A stretch of DNA of 64,000 nt from a virus. Under the pieces are notes generated by a model. That model was not told where the DNA came from, made no database searches, and saw nothing but the letters and a program-made list of their open reading frames with translations. The DNA lies in the IMG/VR virus record IMGVR_UViG_3300045125_000031, positions 37,242-101,241 of that record. One strand, 5' to 3'. Position numbers and translations under genes: made by a program. Of this stretch, positions 44,138 through 63,852 are shown in pieces (the first letter of the stretch is position 1; each line of letters opens with the position of its first letter).

Positions 44138-44944
44138 TTATGCTAGTGAAATTGATTGTGAAGAAGATAACTGCTGCAATTCTGTATCAACGTTTGGGTT
44201 GATTGAAGCCTTTGCACCAGCAAGTAATTCTTCGATATGTTGGCAAACCACTGCAAACTCTTCTTCGAAAATCTTTTGAGATCTTCCAAGTCCCATTCCA
44301 GCAGTAGGTTGGTTTTCCTTTAGTGTTGCTTCGATATCATAGTTAAGAGTTGTGCACTGATAGTGTTTTGCAACATAACCATCCTTGTCAACTAAATACT
44401 TTTCAAAGTTACCGCCCATCCAGTCACCATTGTCAAAACCTAGGTTAAGCCAATGTGAGTAATAGTCTTGAGACTCTGTTGGTGTGTTTTCAGCAATATT
44501 TTTTGCCTTAAATTGTCTTTGATGATCTTGTATTGTTAGATATAGATCATGTGGAGGAAGGTTTTCTTTTCCTAATCCATTGATACCAGGAGTTTCGCTA
44601 ACCTTGTCATGTGGGACAGATCCTACCATTTCAGAAAAACCAAATGTTGTTCCATAAACATCTTTTCCATATGCCTGTGAGTCAGCACCACATGTAATAC
44701 CTTCTGACCACTTACCCTTTGTAATTCCAGGACCACAGTAATCATTTGTTGGGATAGCAATTACTTGGAATCCTTGATCACCATATTTGTCCTGAAGCAT
44801 TTGTAAAACTTCCATTTGATTTGCGTTACCGCAGCCAACTGTTGTGTTAGCGATTAGGGTTACTTTACCCTTATATTGATTTAGAAACCCAGGAGTACCT
44901 TCTGCTGAATTTAAGTCAATGTCGTATATAGATTTTAGTGTCAT
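44138..44944 (-). CDS. Glutathione peroxidase family (Cys-GPx) protein
   Basis: SIYDI, YKGKVTLIANTTVGCG, LQDKYGDQGFQVIAIPTNDY and NFEKYLVDKDG motifs. Confidence 0.85.
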   Translation of the reverse strand: MTLKSIYDIDLNSAEGTPGFLNQYKGKVTLIANTTVGCGNANQMEVLQMLQDKYGDQGFQVIAIPTNDYCGPGITKGKWSEGITCGADSQAYGKDVYGTTFGFSEMVGSVPHDKVSETPGINGLGKENLPPHDLYLTIQDHQRQFKAKNIAENTPTESQDYYSHWLNLGFDNGDWMGGNFEKYLVDKDGYVAKHYQCTTLNYDIEATLKENQPTAGMGLGRSQKIFEEEFAVVCQHIEELLAGAKASINPNVDTELQQLSSSQSISLA

Positions 44945-45448: not shown

Positions 45449-46099
45449 TTATTCTAACTCATGCCTTGGCTTCTTGCCTACTATCCACCCATTGTGTATT
45501 CCTACAAGGGGTGCGTCAATACATACAGCAACCCCTCCGTCAATTGTGTTGGAAAGAAACCGATAAACTTATCTACCGCTTGCTTGCTATAAAACGGGAT
45601 AGTCTTGCTCTCACCCGTTACTGTTGTTAGTTTTACTTGTATCATTGTTATTTTCTCCTAATTCTATTCTATCATTTATTTTGCCGTAATGTGAGCGGTC
45701 ATAGTTAGCAATAGTGCCTCCACTCAATAGGTGAGCCTTTCTCCTTAGTTGCTCCTCGCTATACCCCGCCACTATAACACGCACTCGCAAGGTTCGATAG
45801 CGTAATCTTCGTTATCGCCATAAAAAATAATTCCTCTGCCTGAGCAGGTATCGCAGTCTATAATTTGTAGTGAGTTTATCATTTGATAACCTTCTTCTTT
45901 TTTTATCTAATAATTCTATTCTATACTATGGGACTGACAAAAAGAGGGTCTATTTGCCAATGTCTGATGTGACTTAGGTCACGCTCCAAAGATGAAGCAT
46001 AGGGTAATCGCTAAGCCTACGCCTATAAAGGCTCCAATAGGTCCCGCTACATCTGCGTATGTGTCTAACCAGTCGATGATTGCTGTAAATGGATTCATT
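45449..46099 (-). other. Leftward small early genes (3-4 ORFs)
   Basis: Hand-read ORFs MNPFTAIIDW..., MINSLQIIDCDTCSG... and MIQVKLTTVTG..., each with an RBS. Confidence 0.5.
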
Positions 46100-46342
46100 T
46101 TGTATCCCTTTCGTTTAGTAGTTATACTTTAACTATCTAATACTGGAAGTATAACAGATAGGACTGACAAAATCAACTCTCAGCACGGCGTGTCGTATGT
46201 GATTTAGCCCACATTGCCTAGGAAAAAGTTATCCACAGGTCAGACCATTCATGTGTGGATAACTTATGTGACCTTTATCACAAAAATAGTTTTCCGACAC
46301 GCCCGAAAAACAGGCAAAAATGTCAGACCCCTGTGTTAGACT
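45918..46342. promoter_or_regulatory. Divergent early promoter region with DnaA, CRP-like, GACAC and TGTCAG-N10-TANNNT elements
   Basis: Gene strand switches here. Two leftward and one rightward promoter, two perfect DnaA boxes and three TGTGA-N6-TCACA-like sites. Confidence 0.75.
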
Positions 46343-48542
46343 TACAGAGTAAGATAAACAAAAGAAAGGTGGTCTAAAATGACTACACTAACAAATAACA
46401 ATGTGCCGAGAGCACAACCCTATGAAATCTGCTATCTCAGAAATCGGAGATGAGCAATTTACTTTCTGTCAAGATTGTGAAAATAACATTGAGCGTTGGT
46501 ATGACGATACTGACCCTGAGCGTCTACCTATGTGGACAGATTGGAAAGTGTCTAAATGATAACACAATACATTGACCAAAACGAGTTTTATCTTATCAAA
46601 GATGAACAGCGTTTCTGTTGTGGCGAAAGCCAATTCCGCTATGTGTGTAAAGCGCATGGTGAGGCAATGGGTTGCTACTATTGCGAGTTTAACTATGATG
46701 AGAATTGCGAGGAACAACACTAATGATAACTCTTACACTTACCTCCTATAATGGCAATACTAAGAAAATGCCTTTCTATACAGAAAAGCAAGTGCGTAGT
46801 TTTATTTCTGCGCTACCCTCACACCTTAACAAAACAACTTCGCTAAAAGTAGAGTGTGACCTATTAGCAATTAGCGGAACAATTAGAGGAGAAAACTAAT
46901 GATAACTAACTATGAAATGACACAAGAGATAAAGTCTCTTGCTACTAAGCACTATGGTGACAATGACCTTGCATGGATGTGGGGATGTGCTCAAGCACTA
47001 CTTACCGCAACACAATTAGAGTTAATTCTTGGAATACTAAAAGATAAGGAGGTTCAGTAATGCAAAAGTTTATTTATTCTATTGCCGTTGAGGTAATTGC
47101 TGAGGATCAAGATGAAGCAACTTGGCGTATCTATAATACAAATCTAAGCGAACTAAAAACAGATTGCTTTGAGATTGAAATTGAGGAAATTGACTAATGA
47201 AAACACTTCAAGAAAAATTAGACGAAGTTGCAAAAGAATTAGAGCCAATACTTTGGGATCTACTTGATGAAATTGAAAAATAAAAATAAATAAAAAGTTT
47301 TTTGCAAAATAAAATTGCAAAAAATTCCTAGGCAATTTTCCTAGCGTGTCGTCCACAGGCTGTGGATAACTAATGTGTTTAAGGTCACACTTTTATTTCC
47401 CCGAAATACGGCGTGTCGATTTGACTTTTTGAGATTTTTGTGTTAAACTATCCATAGTTAAAAAATAAAGAAAGGATAACTAAAAATGGACTATTTAGAC
47501 TATTTAGACGAAATCTACGAGGAATTAGTAGATGAATTCGGTCATGAAATCGAATCAAATTGTATCCATGAGTGATACAAATCACACGCCCTGAGCGTCT
47601 CATTATTTGAGAATACTCGTGGGTAACTTGAAAAAATAACAAAAAAATGAAATAATAGAATTATTAGAAACTAAGAAAGGTGGCAACTATGTCAGCCAAT
47701 TTATACACTATCGAAAACCTACTCGTAGGAAAAATCTATCGCTCAAAAATCTTTGACGGGTGAAATCGTTTCAGCAGAGCCACACCCTGAAGCCGTATGG
47801 TATGACGGCGCAGAGGCTTATCGTGTAGAGGTAAGAAATGAAAATGGCGGTTATACCTATCGCTCAGTAGCAGTAAAGGTTGGTGACTAATGAAACTACA
47901 TGAATTTCAAGAATTAGTAAAGTCGCAACGCCAAGCGCAACAATTGACAAACTTAGAGAAAATCGCTAAAATTGTAGAAACAACAAAAGAAAAGGAAATT
48001 AACTAATGACTACATACACAGACTACCCATTCAATGCTCAAGGAATAAATTTTATTTCACGAGTACATACAGACTCACCATTCGCACGACAGATTGCTGA
48101 TTTGCCAGCAGGCGTATTTGAAACAATGAACATTCAAGCAGTTTCAGATTTAATGAATTTATCAACTTTCACACTTGATGAAATTAAATCAGAATTGGAC
48201 CGAGTAAATGAGGGCGGAACTCATGCGTTTATTTTGTTAGGAGAAAATAACTAATGATGACACGAAAAGACTATGTCCAAACTTCAAACATTCTAAAAGG
48301 ATTTAGCGAGGAAATTCATCCCGCAGTCTTTGAGGATTTAGTAGAGGAATTCTCTCAATACTTTCAAGCAGATAACGAGCGATTTGATAAAGCAAAATTC
48401 GAAAAAGGCTTGCGGTGTTGATGAGTTAGGATTGATAGACGCATGAACAGATTTTTAACTTCCCTTGTTCAATTATTTTTGTGGCTTCCAATTTTATTTA
48501 TAATTTATTCAGAAATAAAATCAAGAAAACAAAACTAAAAAA

Positions 48543-48568
48543 ATCCTGAGCATGATCTAAAACTGCTC
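48543..48568 (+). ncRNA. H-type pseudoknot motif copy 1
   Basis: ATC-CT-GAGCA-T-GAT-CTAAAAC-TGCTC. Confidence 0.65.
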
Positions 48569-48727
48569 AAATTTTTCCTAGGCCGTTTTCCACAAGGTCA
48601 GACTAAGTTATCCACAGGTCATTTAAGATGTGATCAAAAACACACCCAGATTTTACGGCGTGTCGTTTTGATTTTGTCAGTACAAAATGATAGACTTACG
48701 GAGTAAGAATAAAGAAAGGAAACTCAA

Positions 48728-49226
48728 ATGGGTTTAGACATGTATCTTAGTGCTAAGAAGCACTTTGCCAAGATTAATTGGCAAGCATTACAGGCTAATG
48801 ATGAACTATCTTATAATTCACCTGAAGCCGTTTTCCGTCAATTTAATGATTTAATGGAATTGACACAATTATCCTAATGTTGCAACAGACATCTATGGAG
48901 CAACAGTAGAAGTCACTTGTGCTTATTGGCGCAAGGCTAATCAAATTCATGCTTGGTTTGTAAGAGAAATACAAAAGGGTAATGATAACTGCGGTGAATA
49001 CTATGTATCACAAGACCAACTAAAGCAATTGCGTGACCTATGCCAAAAGGCATTGGATAATCGTGACCCTAATCTATTGCCACCACAAGAAGGATTTTTC
49101 TTTGGTGGAACAGACATTGACGAATGGTATTGGCAAGACCTAAAGAATACTATTGCCCAATTGGACAGGATTTTTGCCCTGCCTCAATTGTCCGATTTGT
49201 CCTTTTCCTACAGTTCTTCATGGTAG
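48728..49226 (+). CDS. Conserved phage protein (MGLDMYL/YWRKAN family), frameshifted
   Basis: MGLDMYL, YWRKANQIHAWFV, LLPPQEGFFFG and YSSSW motifs. Confidence 0.7.
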
Positions 49227-50567
49227 GGAGCGTGTCGGGTTGAAAATGTCAGCCCGACATGATAGGATTTATTTATAAAGAAAGGAAATAATATGAATAA
49301 GAAAAAAGCACTTGAAACTATTGCTAATTGTAAATTATGTAGTGGTATTGGCTATGAAGGTTGGGCGCATGGCGAGGATTTTGATATTGAGTGGTGTGAT
49401 TGTAACCCTGAACAACTAACACCAGAATTAGGATATACCTATCCTGAAAGAGATACTTGTATCGGTTGTAATGAAAATGGAGTATCGTGGGACGAACTCT
49501 ATTGCTACACTTGCTATCTTGCTAATAATGCTGAGATAGATTATACTCAGATTGACCAATTATTTATAACACAGGAGGCTAACTAATGGGAAGCAATATG
49601 GCAACAGAAATGGCAGATGGTACTCTAAGCGATTTAGGTATTAACTTAACTATTGAACAACAGATAGGGATACACCTATCGTCTAATCACTACCCGCCCG
49701 TACCCGCTATCATGATACCTGCTTGTATTGAGGCTATCGATGCCGTTAATGACGCAGGGCTGTGGGATTTAGATATTCAGATGCCTGAAGGCGTATCTTA
49801 TAAGGGTTTGACTACTGCCCCAGCATGGGCTATTATTGAACAACACCACCTAAATGCTTGGATTATCGAAAGAGAGGAATACTAAGATGGAATACTTATA
49901 CTCAGTAACTTGTACCTATGACGGAGAGGCTACACCTCGTTGGATTGGTAGATTTAGCGATTGTCTATCTGCCGTTGAAAGTTATCAAAAGTTTGTTGAT
50001 TGGGGAACTGCCGTAGAATACTCAACAATTAACTTATCAGAACCTAATGGCAAAATGCACACTAAGGTATTTAATAAAAATGGAAATGTAAGTATGCGTT
50101 AAATGTCTGATACAATGTTGAATATGGAAGACTTCACTGCTGTAGATATTCTCAATGCCGACCAGTTAGAAGTAGGAGATCTAATTGGTATCGGTGGAGA
50201 GATTGTAAAGGTGCTTGCAATTTCACCACTTCACTATGGATTTAATCTTGCTATAGAAAATAATTTTGGCGAAAAAGATTTTGTTGATGTAAGTGAAGAT
50301 GATAATTTTAAATTGTATATAGAAAACTTCTAAAAACCGGCCTAGGCAATTCGGACATATTCGGACATTTGCATTTTTGTTATTTTTATGATAAGATTAT
50401 TACATGATGAAAAAAACGGCTGAGGAATTACGCAGACTTATGGAATTACGCAGGTCTAATGCTGCAACTCCATTAAGGAACAAAAAAGCCTACTCCCGTA
50501 AAGTTAAACACAAAAAATTTGACTTATCAAAATAAAAATGTTATAATAAAAATAAAGAAAGGACCCC

Positions 50568-51287
50568 ATGAAACTAAAACGTAGCATGGATAGGAAGGTA
50601 ACTAATGCTGTCTCACCCAACGGAAAAACCCCAACAATTGCCAACACTTTTGGATTGCCTGCTGGTAAGGCTTTCTCGTGCCCTGGTGCCACTAACACTT
50701 GTGAGAGCGTTTGCTACGCAGGAAAACTTGAAAGAGTCTACAAAGGCGTAAAGGCTGTCTTACTTCATAACTGGGAATTACTAAAAGACGCTGACCATGA
50801 CACTATGGAAGCATTGCTCATGGACATGATTGCAGACTTTAGAAAAGATTGTGAAAAGAAAGACGCTCCTATGCTATTCCGTATCCACTGGGACGGTGAT
50901 TTCTTTAGTGATGACTATGCATTTGCATGGAAGACACGTTATTCTTAATAATCCTGATGTAAAGTTCTGGGTCTATACTCGTGTAGCCTCTGCTGCAGAC
51001 ATACTCAAGGGAATTGATAATCTTAGCTTATACTATTCTACGGATAAAGACAACAAAGAGATTGCTATTAGTCTAAATAAGGAAAAGGGTATTCGTTTGG
51101 CATACCTTGCAGATACCTTCGCAATTGGGCAGGCTGATCTAAAGGCAATGATAGGCAAGGTAGGGGCTAAGTGCCCTGAGAATAAAAAGGCTATTCCCTA
51201 ATTGACAAAGAGGGGTCTGCTTGTGTAAAATGTAATTTATGTGTTAGCAACAAGGCTGACATAGTGTTTAGCGCAAAGAAAAAGTGA
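50568..51287 (+). CDS. Gene product 88-like Fe-S protein (frameshifted)
   Basis: FGLPAG..CPGAT..C..VCYA, FRIHWDGDF, FWVYTR and terminal C..C..C motifs. Confidence 0.7.
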
Positions 51288-51468
51288 TAAATGAAAATCC
51301 TATTACTAATCTTGTGGGCTATCTTTATTGGGATAATTTTCTACCCACCCCTAAAGTGACCCAAATCACACGAGAGAAATCTCAAAATGTGAGAAAATGT
51401 CAAAAATAACTTGACACGGCAAGAAAAAATGTCATAATAGTAGTATAACCAACAACAAAGGAGAAAAA

Positions 51469-51636
51469 ATGTCAGTAGCAACCGCAACTTACAAGGTAGG
51501 CGACCTATACACTTCACAGAAGTCAAAGGTCACAGGCACAATTACAGAAATCAAGCCAAATCAAGACGGCTCATCTGTTCGTGTCAAACTTGATGTAAAT
51601 GGCACACCACGCTGGACAACTTGGACAGCAAAGTAA
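51469..51636 (+). CDS. 55-aa beta-barrel (SH3-like) protein
   Basis: MSVATATYKVGDLYTSQKSKVTGTI...; paralog of 52255-52422. Confidence 0.6.
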   Translation: MSVATATYKVGDLYTSQKSKVTGTITEIKPNQDGSSVRVKLDVNGTPRWTTWTAK

Positions 51637-51652
51637 TTCTCAATACGAGAAA

Positions 51653-51681
51653 AGTCCTGAGTATGACTACTAAAACTGCTC
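51653..51681 (+). ncRNA. H-type pseudoknot motif copy 2
   Basis: AGTC-CT-GAGTA-T-GACT-ACTAAAAC-TGCTC. Confidence 0.7.
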
Positions 51682-51746
51682 ACTTGACTTTCTAACTAAA
51701 AAATGTTAGACTTGACATAACCCAAACCCACTAAGAAAGGAAACAA

Positions 51747-52166
51747 ATGGCAAGAGGAAAAGCGATAAATGTAAAAATCGCTACAACTAAGGTTATCAAA
51801 GCCTTAGAAACTAAATTAGCAGAAATCAACAAAGATTTCGCAAATCAAGAAGCAAACGAGGCTAAGTATGATAAGGCTCGTAAAGCATGGGCTAAAGAAG
51901 TAGCAAAACTCGCAGTTGCTCAAATCGCAAAGGCTGAGAACTTCTCTGCTAATAAGCGATACAACAATGAAATCAACATTGACTTCAACATACCTGCTGG
52001 TCTTATTGACCTACCTGCTGAACCTGAGCGTGAGCATAAGACAATGAACGATTGGCAGTATCGTGAAATGGTTGAGGAAATTGAGAACGCAATTCGTATT
52101 CTCAAAATGACAGATGAGGAAGTAGTTTCTACTTCTACTTACAACGCTATCGCAAGATACCTATAA
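51747..52166 (+). CDS. Hypothetical coiled-coil protein
   Basis: Intact 139-aa ORF with strong RBS and its own promoter. Confidence 0.7.
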   Translation: MARGKAINVKIATTKVIKALETKLAEINKDFANQEANEAKYDKARKAWAKEVAKLAVAQIAKAENFSANKRYNNEINIDFNIPAGLIDLPAEPEREHKTMNDWQYREMVEEIENAIRILKMTDEEVVSTSTYNAIARYL

Positions 52167-52254
52167 TCAAGATGGCGGGTGCGTGGGCTATTGACAACAC
52201 CCGCCAAACTTGGTAAAATAAATACAAGACCCAATAAATAGAAAGGCAAAACAA

Positions 52255-52422
52255 ATGACATTAGGCGGATACACTTACCAAATCGGTGATTTATTCACAA
52301 CAAGCAAAACAGGAGTTACAGGTCGCATTGAAAAGTTTGTTCCACAAACTCGTAATGTAACTAAGGTTATGCTTCGTTTAGCAAATAACCAAACTCGTTT
52401 CGCAATGGTAAAGACTTACTAA
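52255..52422 (+). CDS. 55-aa beta-barrel (SH3-like) protein
   Basis: MTLGGYTYQIGDLFTTSKTGVTGRI...; upstream TTGACA-17-TAAAAT promoter. Confidence 0.6.
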   Translation: MTLGGYTYQIGDLFTTSKTGVTGRIEKFVPQTRNVTKVMLRLANNQTRFAMVKTY

Positions 52423-52434
52423 GAAAGGAATAAC

Positions 52435-52638
52435 ATGCTAAAAAAGTTATTATTGGAATACAGGCACTATTTGTTTTTTTGGTTAGTTGCTGGTGTTGCA
52501 GGTGCAAACTGCGAAGCAGAACAATATCAGGGTGCTTGTGAAGCAGGAACTGGAATTGGTTTGTTTTTAATAATGATGTTATGGGCAATTGTAGATATTA
52601 TTCTATTGCTTATTTGGTTCATTACTCGTAAGAAATAA
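52435..52638 (+). CDS. Small two-TM membrane protein
   Basis: Two hydrophobic helices flanking a Cys-pair loop. Confidence 0.55.
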   Translation: MLKKLLLEYRHYLFFWLVAGVAGANCEAEQYQGACEAGTGIGLFLIMMLWAIVDIILLLIWFITRKK

Positions 52639-52707
52639 CTTTCTTTCCTGATAAGCCCCGCTAAAAAATGAAGTGGCGAAAGTCCTTGCGGGTATTCCTG
52701 GAAAGAT

Positions 52708-52734
52708 CATCCTGAGCATGATGTAAAACTGCTC
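52708..52734 (+). ncRNA. H-type pseudoknot motif copy 3
   Basis: CATC-CT-GAGCA-T-GATG-TAAAAC-TGCTC. Confidence 0.7.
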
Positions 52735-53554
52735 CACAAAAATCGCCTAGGCGGTGTGATTTAAATCATAGTCCACTATGTGAGATGATTTACGTACTTG
52801 ATTTGATTTTCCCCCATAAAAATGCTATGATTATATTATCTTAAGAAAGGATAATTAAATGATTAGTACCGCAATAGCCCTACAGAATGTAACAAAAGAA
52901 GCAGTTCACGACGAAATAATAATGAATATGGCTCGTGCCATTTATCACACTAAAGACGGCATGTCTCCAGATGAGTTTGCCCAAGCCTTATATATGTATT
53001 CAGGAACGTTGGCTGCTTTAACAACTACATTAGTAACAAGTGTATTATTGACAGAAGCAGAAATAGATGATATGGTTAATACAATTAAAGAAATGGAAAC
53101 AATGGGAAAGGATGTTGAATAATGGAAACTCCATTTAATGCAACAATTAAAGAATATGTAGCAACAGAAGACTTTCTAAAGTCAGAAATTAAAAAGAAGG
53201 ATGAGCGAATCAAGCAACTTGAGGAGCATACTTCTGTAGTAACTCAGCGTTCATACACTGAATCTGCAGAGCGCAATCGCATGCGTAATGAAATGCAGGA
53301 ATGGACCCTGGAGCAATTGGATGAAGATTCAATCACTGAATCACAGGCAGAAGAAATTGCAAGCATTTGTGGTTTTGAATTAGCCAAGGAATTTGAGGCT
53401 GAGGTAACCGTCCAGTACTCAATTACAATTAATGCACGTAATGAAGAGCAGGCACAGAATGCAATCTATGATATTGATTTTGATTCAGTCTCATACAACG
53501 GCGATGCAATTACCTATTTGTCAGGCAGTGTCGACAGAATAGAAATTTAAAAAT

Positions 53555-53656
53555 TTGCAGGGTTCATGAAAGGCCCTGCAATGTATACGGATCCTATCTT
53601 TCATCCTTTCTTAAATAGGACCGTAAGGGACCTGAGCACGTCCATGTAAACTGCTT
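53555..53656 (+). ncRNA. Structured RNA: two kissing hairpins plus pseudoknot copy 4
   Basis: Stems TTGCAGGG/CCCTGCAA and TACGG-TCCTAT/ATAGGA-CCGTA with complementary loops ATGAAAG/CTTTCAT, then GGAC-CT-GAGCA-C-GTCC-ATGTAAAC-TGCTT. Confidence 0.65.
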
Positions 53657-53816
53657 TATAAATTTCCTAGGCACCTAGCCCGCAAAAATTCAAAATGTCA
53701 AGTATTTAAGATGTGTTTTACGTCACGTCCAATTTATCCCCTTTTACTAAGCCTATTTGACTTTTGTCGGTTGTTTATGCTAAGATTGTTAAAACACTTA
53801 CAGAAAGGACAAAATA

Positions 53817-56999: not shown

Positions 57000-57699
57000 T
57001 CGATCCCTGGTTTTGTGACGACGGTCACTACGTAAAGCGGAGGTTGGGTCCCTTCGCTGCAGATAAAAGGGGGCAGGCCTGACTGTCTACGGGCTTGCCT
57101 CCCACATCTTTTTTGATACAATCTAATAGGAGGAACTATGGCTTACAGCGTTAGGCGAGCACCACAAAATACAAAAGAAATACAGGTAGCAAGCAGAATA
57201 GCCAAGATTATTAATGAAGACATGGGGCTAAATCTGGAAGCAGTTGGCTATCATCTGGTTCGCAATCACCCACCAATCGTGTGGCACCGCCTTGAGGTTC
57301 TCGCCTTGACAGCGGGGGAAGAACATGATAAACTTATGAGTGACTATTTAGGAGAAGAGCATGTCAATAGACTTTACAGATAAGTGTGGTATTTTAGGTC
57401 AGTTCTGGTTTGAATACAGAGATGACGAAAAACTTGGAGAGTTCATCTCCTACAACGACATTGGCTTGCCTTTGTCATGGTTTATTTCTACAGGGGTAGT
57501 AACACCAAACCCTATTGCTGAAGACTATGTAAATGAAACCTTTGCGTTATTCTTGGCAGCATTATCGCTAACCGAAGATGATGTTGATGGTTTGGATAAT
57601 CTCAATGATGTCCTTGAGGTTGTTGAATCTAATTTAGAGGACGAAGAGTAAAAATCTCAGTCCCCCTGCGGGGGCTGCCTAGATCATCATTTAGCATAT

Positions 57700-58660
57700 A
57701 ACAAACCATCAAACCAAATTTGCAAATAGATTACGAACCATTGTAAATTTTTCCCAGAAAGATTACGATCCAAACCATATTTTCCCCAAACCTTATATCA
57801 TAATATTTTTGGTTTGTCAAACCATAGTATCCTAGTGTATAGTTGTATATAGTACTAGGGGTATTACGAAGAGTCTTTTCTATTCCCCGCCGTTTTTAGG
57901 CGGGTATCAAACCAGTGTTATAATGGTTATATGAGTCCCCGTCACTTTTCTAAGATGTATCAAAACAAAAACCAACACAGACATGATCAGCAATCTGATT
58001 GGGACTCCTTTACGAAAGACATGACGGTTTTGACGGGTATGTTATATACAATTGCTAAGTGGCCTATCAAACCATTCATCCCTGCATTCTATAAAACAGC
58101 CAAGGAGTATCAAAAGGATTACGAACCTATCTATAATGCTCCACAGGATTGTCCTTGTGGATGCCCGCCCAATAATTGCACCTGCTGCTGCTCAAAGGCA
58201 GAGGGCTGCGGGCACCGCAAATAACGGCGGGTATAAAAAGATTACGATCATACCCTAATTCCCCCTATATATACATATCAAACCATTTTTCCTGGTTTTA
58301 AAACATTTTTAAAAGTATTACGAACTTTCTGGAATTTTTCCCAGAAATTTGGCAATTTTCCTGCATAAAAGATTACGAAGATACTTGACAAACCATGGTT
58401 TTGCAGATATAATGCCCAAACCTTTATATAATGGTTTGACAGATATGATGGTTTGTGGTATAAGATGGCATGATGGTTTGATGGATATATGGTTTTGTGG
58501 TTTGGGATTACGAACGCCATCGTTAAAAGCGTTCCATACACCACTATCCTCCACTTTACTCCACTTTAACCCTATCCAATAATATAATCAGTAAGATTTA
58601 TCTGTGGATAACTTGTGGATAACTATACCAAACCATCTATCAACCTGTGGATAACTTCGA
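57700..58660. repeat. Iteron-like repeat region with DnaA boxes (candidate replication origin)
   Basis: Eight (G/T)ATTACGA copies, many AAACCA/TGGTTT copies and three TGTGGATAA boxes at 58603, 58614 and 58646. Confidence 0.55.
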
Positions 58661-58699
58661 CGGTATATAAACCAATTGACCATATGCTACAATGAATAT

Positions 58700-58930
58700 A
58701 TGTGGTGGTCATGGGTATTAGCAGTTATAGGCGTAGCAGGTATTTACTTTGTTGGTCGTAAGGACAAATGGGGATGGTTTGTCTTATTGTTCAACGAATG
58801 CCTGTGGATAACTTATGCTCTTATAACAAACCAGTATGGTTTTATATTCTCAGCCTTAGCCTATGCAGCCGTATATATCAGATCATATATCCATTGGTCT
58901 AAAGAACCAGTTAATGAGATACCTCTATAG
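58700..58930 (+). CDS. PnuC-like small membrane protein
   Basis: MWWSWVLAVIGVAGIYFVGRKDKWGW...QYGF; three TM helices. Confidence 0.6.
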   Translation: MWWSWVLAVIGVAGIYFVGRKDKWGWFVLLFNECLWITYALITNQYGFIFSALAYAAVYIRSYIHWSKEPVNEIPL

Positions 58931-63588: not shown

Positions 63589-63662
63589 GGAGCAGTAGCC
63601 AAGTTGGTCAAGGCCCCGAACTCATAATTCGGCTATCGTAGGTTCAAGTCCTACCTGCTCTA
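63589..63662 (+). tRNA. tRNA with CAT anticodon (elongator Met or Ile2)
   Basis: Cloverleaf: acceptor GGAGCAG/CTGCTCT, anticodon arm CCGAA-CTCATAA-TTCGG and T arm GTAGG-TTCAAGT-CCTAC. It lacks the three G-C pairs of an initiator and has no encoded CCA. Confidence 0.9.
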
Positions 63663-63852
63663 CTAGGCTTATTCAGATTCTACTCAGGATAAGTACGACT
63701 GTTCCGAAACTAACGCCAGGTGGCAGTGTGGCATAACACTTGTAGAGGTGCAAACCATTAACTTGCATCTAGGAATAGAGTTAGCAGTCAAGGCGCAGAA
63801 AGAATGCGAATGGCGTGGTCAACATTTAAAATTGCGTAGAGCAGTCCAGAAG

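Follow-up and report, generated by a model that had tools for sequence, protein, structure and literature searches.

Promoters at the divergence point

The uncultured virus record IMGVR_UViG_3300045125_000031 (101,241 bp, 92% complete, 36% guanine plus cytosine, GC) carries, in the 64,000-nucleotide stretch analysed here (the window; record bases 37242-101241), a group of promoters in which a hexameric box, TGTCRG, precedes a TANNNT -10 element at a fixed distance of 10 nucleotides (nts). A first-pass annotation of the window had singled out six such promoters, and a pattern search of both strands finds all of them where they had been placed: there are exactly six matches to TGTCRG-N10-TANNNT (Table 1), against a chance expectation of 1.15 (100 dinucleotide shuffles, with a maximum of 4 and none of the 100 reaching six). 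The whole 101,241-bp record holds no seventh copy, and the reversed control pattern occurs in it once. All six sites are confined to 7.9 kb in which a block of structural genes on the minus strand meets a block of small genes on the plus strand; they lie at and just to the right of the divergence point and are oriented both ways. Each is followed, 25-45 nts on, by a GGA-type ribosome-binding site and a start codon. The six sites are almost certainly real promoters of one conserved class.

The box reads TGTCAG at five of the sites and TGTCGG at 53765 alone, the 10-nt gap to the -10 element is kept at all six, and an extended -10 (TGn) is present at five. The TTGA -35 elements at 17-nt spacing that had likewise been annotated are indeed there, as TTGATT at 46176-46171 on the minus strand, TTGATT at 48668 and TTGAAA at 49240, and are joined by a -35-like hexamer, TTGACT (53757), at 18 nts; the sites at 45939 (minus strand) and 46321 (plus strand) have no -35 at 17-18-nt spacing. 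A scan for the sigma-A consensus at a threshold of at least 9/12 recovers the promoters at 49240 and 53757 with the annotated -10 and the one at 45940 with an alternative -10, while of the others 46176 scores 9/12 by eye, 48668 scores 8/12, and 46321 does not qualify. At promoter 1, a second TAGAAT lies 5 nts on, so that a TTGTCA-16-TAGAAT reading is also possible. The leader of promoter 4, TTACGGAGTAAGA, is similar to that of promoter 3 (repeat D6).

Table 1. Box promoters and the genes behind them, in window coordinates
Feature	Position	Strand	Description
Leftward promoter 1	45918..45939	-	TGTCAG 45939-45934, 10 nt, TAGAAT 45923-45918; without -35 at 17 nt and without TG extension
Gene for 36-amino-acid (aa) CxxC...CxC mini-protein	45772..45882	-	First gene after promoter 1; ribosome-binding site GAAGAAGG
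Leftward promoter 2	46148..46176	-	TTGATT (-35), 1 nt, TGTCAG, 10 nt with TGT, TATACT
Gene for 39-aa hydrophobic peptide	45979..46098	-	Downstream of promoter 2
Rightward promoter 3	46321..46342	+	TGTCAG, 10 nt with TGT, TAGACT; without -35; opens the plus-strand small-gene block
About five small genes, 45-58 aa	46379..47197	+	Behind promoter 3
Rightward promoter 4	48668..48696	+	TTGATT, 1 nt, TGTCAG, 10 nt with TGA, TAGACT
Gene for 49-aa protein	48728..48877	+	Behind promoter 4; no family match
Rightward promoter 5	49240..49268	+	TTGAAA, 1 nt, TGTCAG, 10 nt with TGA, TAGGAT
Four-gene operon, small genes called at 97, 99, 71 and 40 aa	49293..50333	+	Behind promoter 5
Rightward promoter 6	53757..53786	+	TTGACT, 2 nt, TGTCGG, 10 nt with TGC, TAAGAT; 18-nt spacer
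Gene for DUF932 protein, 338 aa	53817..54833	+	Behind promoter 6

The first reading frame behind promoter 3 is broken, probably by an assembly indel, and the one open reading frame (ORF) of that run that was scanned, 46401-46559, has no Pfam match; two genes of the promoter 5 operon were scanned and fall into no family. The DUF932 protein behind promoter 6 has conserved counterparts in hundreds of relatives as well as in phages of Mycobacterium, Streptomyces, Microbacterium, Arthrobacter, and Gordonia.

Conservation of the promoter class

The DUF932 gene retrieved 438 IMG/VR stretches, from which 80 related loci (1.35 Mb) were kept. The promoter class recurs throughout: TGTCRG-N10-TANNNT has 527 matches in the 80 loci, and the reversed control has 17. 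In the N10 slot, the enrichment of TGTCAG (21-fold) far exceeds that of any other hexamer, and 509 of the 915 TGTCAG copies stand exactly 10 nts before a TANNNT, compared to 15 at 9 nts and 11 at 11 nts. A logo of 427 distinct sites reads W-W-TGTCAG-T-S-S ... T-G-n-TA-(G/T)-(A/G)-(A/C)-T and runs on into an AT-rich leader; position 5 of the box is A in 97% of the family's sites, and the TG extension is present in 67%. A ribosome-binding site and start codon follow 353 of 415 unique sites (85%), at a median of 32 nts. Up to about 17 box promoters occur per early region in the family, and a complete 120-kb relative (G004) has five convincing sites, at the divergence point only, two of them leftward and three rightward.

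Which positions of the box matter can be read from its natural variants. Before extended -10 elements, TGTCAG occurs 337 times (157-fold enriched) and single changes at positions 1-4 are at background level, while TGTCGG occurs 11 times against 0.5 expected (22-fold) and TGTCAC six times against 0.9 (about sixfold). At the orthologous DUF932 promoter of the 80 relatives, 61 have TGTCAG, 13 have variants that are, without exception, altered only at positions 5-6, and six have lost the box. Together, the tolerance of the individual positions and the DUF932-promoter variants define the functional box as TGTC[A>G]G.

The same promoters indicate the sign of the element. Because 54% of the family promoters score at most 3/6 for a -35 (the remaining 46% have TTG at 17-18 nts), and because loss of the box at the DUF932 promoter is paired with a TTGACA or TTGACT -35 in three of six cases, the box seems to be a positive element that apparently strengthens the promoter instead of blocking it. 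The opposite proposal is that TGTCAG is an operator embedded in the spacer of an ordinary sigma-A promoter, at which a repressor, of phage or host origin, would silence the units or set their timing. In nearly half of the promoters the -35 is indeed serviceable, stands at the optimal 17 nts, and is joined by an extended -10, so that they should fire unaided; the spacer is a common position for repressor binding, and the sites are grouped in a divergent, “switch-like” region. An operator of this kind sits poorly, however, with a single, nonpalindromic 6-bp box that has no partner half-site in the logo, with a box to -10 spacing that stays rigid even where there is no -35, and with the apparent role of the box as a -35 substitute noted above, and we consider it distinctly improbable.

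Sequence features around the promoters

A number of other features share the region. Just left of the promoter cluster, a 268-aa protein (44138-44944, minus strand) has a glutathione-peroxidase-like N-terminal domain (Pfam GSHPx, E 1e-10), and close to the record end there is a tRNA-Met (CAT) gene (63589-63663, plus strand). Perfect DnaA boxes (TTATCCACA) number eight in the window, against 0.97 expected. Four of them fall inside 210 bp (58603-58811), which may mark a replication origin or a site of DnaA titration, and four adjoin box promoters (46229, 46254, 47361, and 48608), with 46229 and 46254 forming an inverted pair. Palindromes of the CRP/GlxR-like form GTGA-N6-TCAC occur five times against 0.92 expected (45969-45982, 46268-46281, 47572-47585, 51356-51369, and 57015-57028), two of them about 65-75 nts upstream of the inferred starts of promoters 1 and 3. 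A second motif, present either as (A)CGGCGTGTCG or in reverse complement, stands 10-40 nts upstream of several box promoters (46186-46196, 46296-46306, 47410-47418, 48657-48665, and 49231-49239) and forms, at 49233-49259, the arrangement TGTCGGG...CCCGACA around the -35.

Promoters of the canonical class, TTGACA/T followed after 16-18 nts by a TATAAT-like -10 and scoring 11-12/12, lie interleaved with the box promoters in the small-gene block at 47944, 50519, 51202, 51411, 52191, 55399, 56605, 58385, and 62518. Reading frames in the window are fragmented, with 25 ORFs of at least 150 aa in 64 kb; examples are 46379-46559 and the minus-strand structural genes. Alternative genetic codes (TAG read as glutamine, translation table 4, and TAG or TGA recoding in general) brought no gain for the broken ORFs, which points to many small assembly indels as the probable cause.

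Phage kinship and host phylum

The lineage of the phage bears directly on which host regulators it could meet. WhiB, an accepted actinophage marker (PMC10202952, PMC6802176), is encoded in all five complete relatives, about 21 kb beyond the DUF932 gene; it was not found in the record itself, where the corresponding position falls past the record end. Among cultured phages, the DUF932 protein, the capsid maturation protease, and WhiB have matches in actinophages only. The nearest cultured kin are 125-135-kb Streptomyces phages (Stanwilliamsviridae) and Rhodococcus phages, with Mycobacterium phages also among the closest; a mycobacteriophage GP88 family domain is present; and a nucleotide search against the cultured-phage collection gave no match. 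The phage is an actinophage and its host belongs to the Actinomycetota, a point we regard as settled. Its family is a large and very abundant one of uncultured lake actinophages, distantly related to the Stanwilliamsviridae of Streptomyces and Rhodococcus.

The 36% GC content, strong TTGACA/TATAAT promoters, and GGAGG ribosome-binding sites might have suggested a Firmicute host, which is ruled out by the WhiB of the relatives and the actinophage-only kinship. Base composition is a poor guide in this lineage: the genome of Jay2Jay, one of the Stanwilliamsviridae, has 49% GC while its Streptomyces host has about 72%, and GC thus says little about the host. The phage WhiB was also used as a host-search query in bacterial genomes, and its matches lay only in phage contigs mis-binned into six unrelated metagenome-assembled genomes, so that it yields no host information. 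Contigs of the family are found in assemblies labelled Beijerinckiaceae, Acidimicrobiaceae, Polynucleobacter, Saccharibacteria, Bifidobacterium, and Arenimonas (L211-L216); their presence in these six public assemblies is probably due to binning errors.

Likeness to PafBC promoters

For mycobacterial RecA-NDp promoters, the older consensus reads TTGTCRGTG-N8-TANNNT. The PafBC consensus published from in vivo data, tGTCgg(N10)tA(N3)T, places the box at -28 to -23 (PMC8635444), and the match of motif and 10-nt spacing to it that had been annotated holds at all six sites. In PafBC promoters, the helix-turn-helix (HTH) domain of PafB reads the GTC triplet through a base-specific contact, with PafBC lodged between the DNA and sigma region 4; the promoters are described as lacking a -35, and the mode of activation has been termed “sigma adaptation” (PMC8635444). 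PafBC is itself activated by single-stranded DNA (PMC11804915).

The phage class shares with PafBC/RecA-NDp promoters TGTC(A/G)G with an invariant GTC, its location at -28 to -23, the exact 10 nts to TANNNT, and the nonpalindromic nature of the box. As to the -35, about half of the phage copies have none, as in PafBC promoters, and about half have a -35-like TTG at 17-18 nts. The phage class differs in that the phage copies are many, are carried by a lytic-type phage, and drive tiny genes of no known function rather than repair genes, and also in the dominance of A at position 5 and in the extended -10 found in two thirds of the copies. The literature searched contained no report of PafBC-type promoters on a phage. 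A 2025 study, as cited in PMC12848934, ties PafBC to mycobacteriophage resistance; its subject is host defence genes, not phage-borne promoters.

On balance, the box promoters of the phage would be read by a host PafBC-type HTH-WYL heterodimer, a reading that we hold to be somewhat more likely than not. Its strongest argument is that a chance match of a 6-bp box, its A/G wobble, and its 10-nt spacing in the right phylum is unlikely; the same coincidence also counts as indirect evidence that the host possesses PafBC. In the architecture of the promoters, an optional, weak -35 (TTGnnT) is followed after 1-2 nts by TGTC[A>G]G at -28 to -23 and then by exactly 10 nts, which usually hold an extended -10 TGn, leading to a -10 of actinobacterial flavour (TAGACT, TAAGAT, or TATACT); beyond it, a short leader rich in A and T runs up to the ribosome-binding site of a small gene. 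The -10 would be read by the sigma-A RNA polymerase of the host, and the box by host PafBC, bridging to sigma region 4. Since single-stranded DNA switches PafBC on, its appearance, whether from damage to the host or from infection itself, would boost the box-driven units, while those with a -35 would keep a basal level. That infection acts as the trigger is wholly conjectural.

The phages themselves offer no obvious alternative reader. Family searches of the record and the five complete relatives found no WYL, PafB/C-like, HTH_11, HTH_PafC, or sigma region 2 protein, nor, in searches run without a positive control, MotA (PF09114) or AsiA (PF09010). The early genes scanned contain no DNA-binding family, and a weak, sub-threshold HTH match occurs in a 55-69-aa ORF in the minus-strand block of the relatives.

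The box in bacterial genomes

The use of the TGTCAG variant by bacteria was examined in a sample of 301 Actinomycetota genomes, which were tallied for WYL genes and for the motif; the tallies include genomes flagged as unpublished (G008, G025, G055, G089, G095, G127, G154, G180, G230, G242, and G267), on which no specific claim rests. WYL genes occur in 255 of the 301. Overall, matches to the strict form TGTCAG-N7-TGNTANNNT outnumber those to its reversed control about 2.5-fold and are concentrated in a few genomes; genomes without WYL genes have 0-2 strict matches, not above the control. In two 1.8-Mb genomes of about 68% GC at recA (G224 and G270), the strict form occurs six times in each, against none for the control, while its GG variant occurs once and not at all, respectively. 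Both have a tandem pair of WYL genes (a pafBC tandem), and their TGTCAG sites precede ruvC (in both genomes) and genes for an adnA-like helicase-nuclease and an SNF2 helicase; their recA is preceded by TGTCAGTG-N8-CATACT beside a LexA box. In a third genome (G027; 1.5 Mb, about 38% GC), a gene for an HTH_PafC+WYL+WCX protein forms a tandem behind a PafB-like gene, TGTCAG-N10-TAAAAT lies 12 nts before an adnA-like gene, and TGTCGC-N10-TATTAT lies before recA. The occurrence of these sites before repair genes in genomes with a pafBC tandem argues that TGTCAG serves naturally as a PafBC-type box, and does so in a low-GC actinobacterium as well. In small genomes, a scan with the looser pattern TGTC-N12-TANNNT gave too much noise to be of use.

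In the pafBC-bearing G224, a Druantia druA gene lies behind a TGTCAG-type promoter (L266, G224:C1:1185615-1188315), and genes for CWB2 surface proteins lie behind further promoters of this type (L261, L263, and L269). These hint that the PafBC-type regulon there extends to anti-phage defence and the cell envelope.

Conceivably, contact with the box is made by the polymerase of the host or by a host factor other than PafBC, the box being a spacer element typical of strong actinobacterial promoters of the lineage. Such an element finds some encouragement in Jay2Jay, where three of nine early promoters (L256, 1-10500, minus strand) have (T/A)GTCC at -28 to -23, that is, in the same slot, right after a TTG -35 and before a TGnTAGACT -10. 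In bacteria, however, the box stands before genes of the PafBC-regulon type (adnA, ruvC, and recA) rather than before genes in general, and the strict form is no commoner than its reversed control where WYL genes are missing. We know of no such sigma-A spacer element, which further counts against it, and the proposal is very improbable.

Weighing a host against a phage factor

Several observations weigh against PafBC as the reader of the box. Position 5 is A in nearly all family sites, as opposed to g in the mycobacterial consensus, and a -35-like TTG is present in four of the six sites and in 46% of the family, whereas a -35 is described as lacking from PafBC promoters (PMC8635444). WYL genes were found in only six of the 27 sampled genomes of at most 1.6 Mb, and in low-GC small genomes without them recA has a LexA-type or another promoter, with the box missing. 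The host is placed to the level of phylum and, if it were a streamlined actinobacterium of the acI type, may lack PafBC; the literature searched contained nothing on PafBC or a proteasome in acI. In Jay2Jay, whose Streptomyces host presumably has PafBC, the first 50 kb contain a single TGTCRG site, at chance level. Also, because most early genes have no recognisable family, one of them may encode a box-binding protein. Finally, the small-gene block contains a mixture of box promoters and canonical TTGACA-17-TATAAT promoters, which leaves unsupported the first-pass claim that it is the earliest transcription of the phage that is coupled to the damage response. The broader claim of a coupling through PafBC stands in part: the motif, its spacing, the actinophage kinship, the failure to find a WYL or PafB/C-like regulator in the phages, and the bacterial TGTCAG sites speak for it, while the hybrid promoters with a -35 and the scarcity of WYL genes in small genomes speak against it.

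The same interleaving of canonical and box promoters is what would be expected of an early class that expresses the activator of a second class. TGTCAG could accordingly be read by a phage-encoded or virion-delivered activator of a new fold that redirects sigma-A polymerase in the manner of MotA/AsiA, making the box promoters a delayed-early class that depends on neither host PafBC nor DNA damage. That nearly all early genes are small and without a family would suit such an activator, as would the lack of WYL genes in most of the small actinobacterial genomes sampled. The distribution of the motif gives it room as well: each IMG/VR contig with at least three sites shares at least two genes with the phage family, bar one 1-in-3 case, and no phage lineage unrelated to the family was found to have the promoter class among these motif-rich contigs. 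Since all of them are related, a family-specific factor is possible, and the distribution does not separate a host from a phage factor. An activator of this sort would, however, have to match by coincidence the PafBC box, the A/G tolerance at its fifth position, and the 10-nt spacing (PMC8635444). The searches of the six genomes, with their noted limit for MotA and AsiA, returned no homologue of WYL, HTH_11, HTH_PafC, sigma, MotA, or AsiA proteins, and in bacteria repair genes are found behind the same box. On this evidence, an activator supplied by the phage, whether from its genome or in the virion, is unlikely. Put in terms of the host, it would be one without PafBC, in which a small phage protein, converged on or derived from the specificity of PafB, reads TGTCRG at -26; we doubt this to the same degree. 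Were it true, that protein would be the actinophage counterpart of MotA/AsiA, and the promoters would form a timed middle class, not a damage sensor. Chance, a lack of function, or something unconsidered is left with the slimmest likelihood of all.

Implications

Descriptions of PafBC-type promoters have until now been confined to actinobacterial chromosomes, where they constitute the main DNA-damage regulon. If host PafBC does read the box, the phage family would be the first case of a virus that plugs its own genes into “sigma adaptation,” and the host's alarm for single-stranded DNA, which may also control defence genes, would serve as a cue for viral expression. The several hundred natural box variants in the phage promoters amount to a map of the mutations that the -26 element can bear.

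Comparison with known phage systems

Jay2Jay and its kin are the closest cultured point of comparison, with related capsid protease, DUF932 protein, and WhiB. The early region of Jay2Jay, too, consists of many small genes, each with its own promoter, with the same TGnTAGACT -10 and, in some, GTC in the -26 slot. It differs in having no TGTCRG class in the 50 kb scanned.

The middle promoters of phage T4 provide a mechanistic analogy. In the “sigma appropriation” brought about by the MotA box together with AsiA, as proposed for the box promoters described here, a box near -30 replaces the -35 while the primary sigma factor of the host reads the -10. The MotA box has another sequence and lies 11-13 nts from the -10. 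The phage class is thus not of the MotA type in its box, and motA and asiA did not turn up in the six genomes in the searches, lacking a positive control, described above. The PafBC paper itself likens PafBC to T4 MotA/AsiA (PMC8635444). The principal difference would lie in the origin of the factor, which is phage-encoded in T4, while in the phage family described here the best candidate is a protein of the host.

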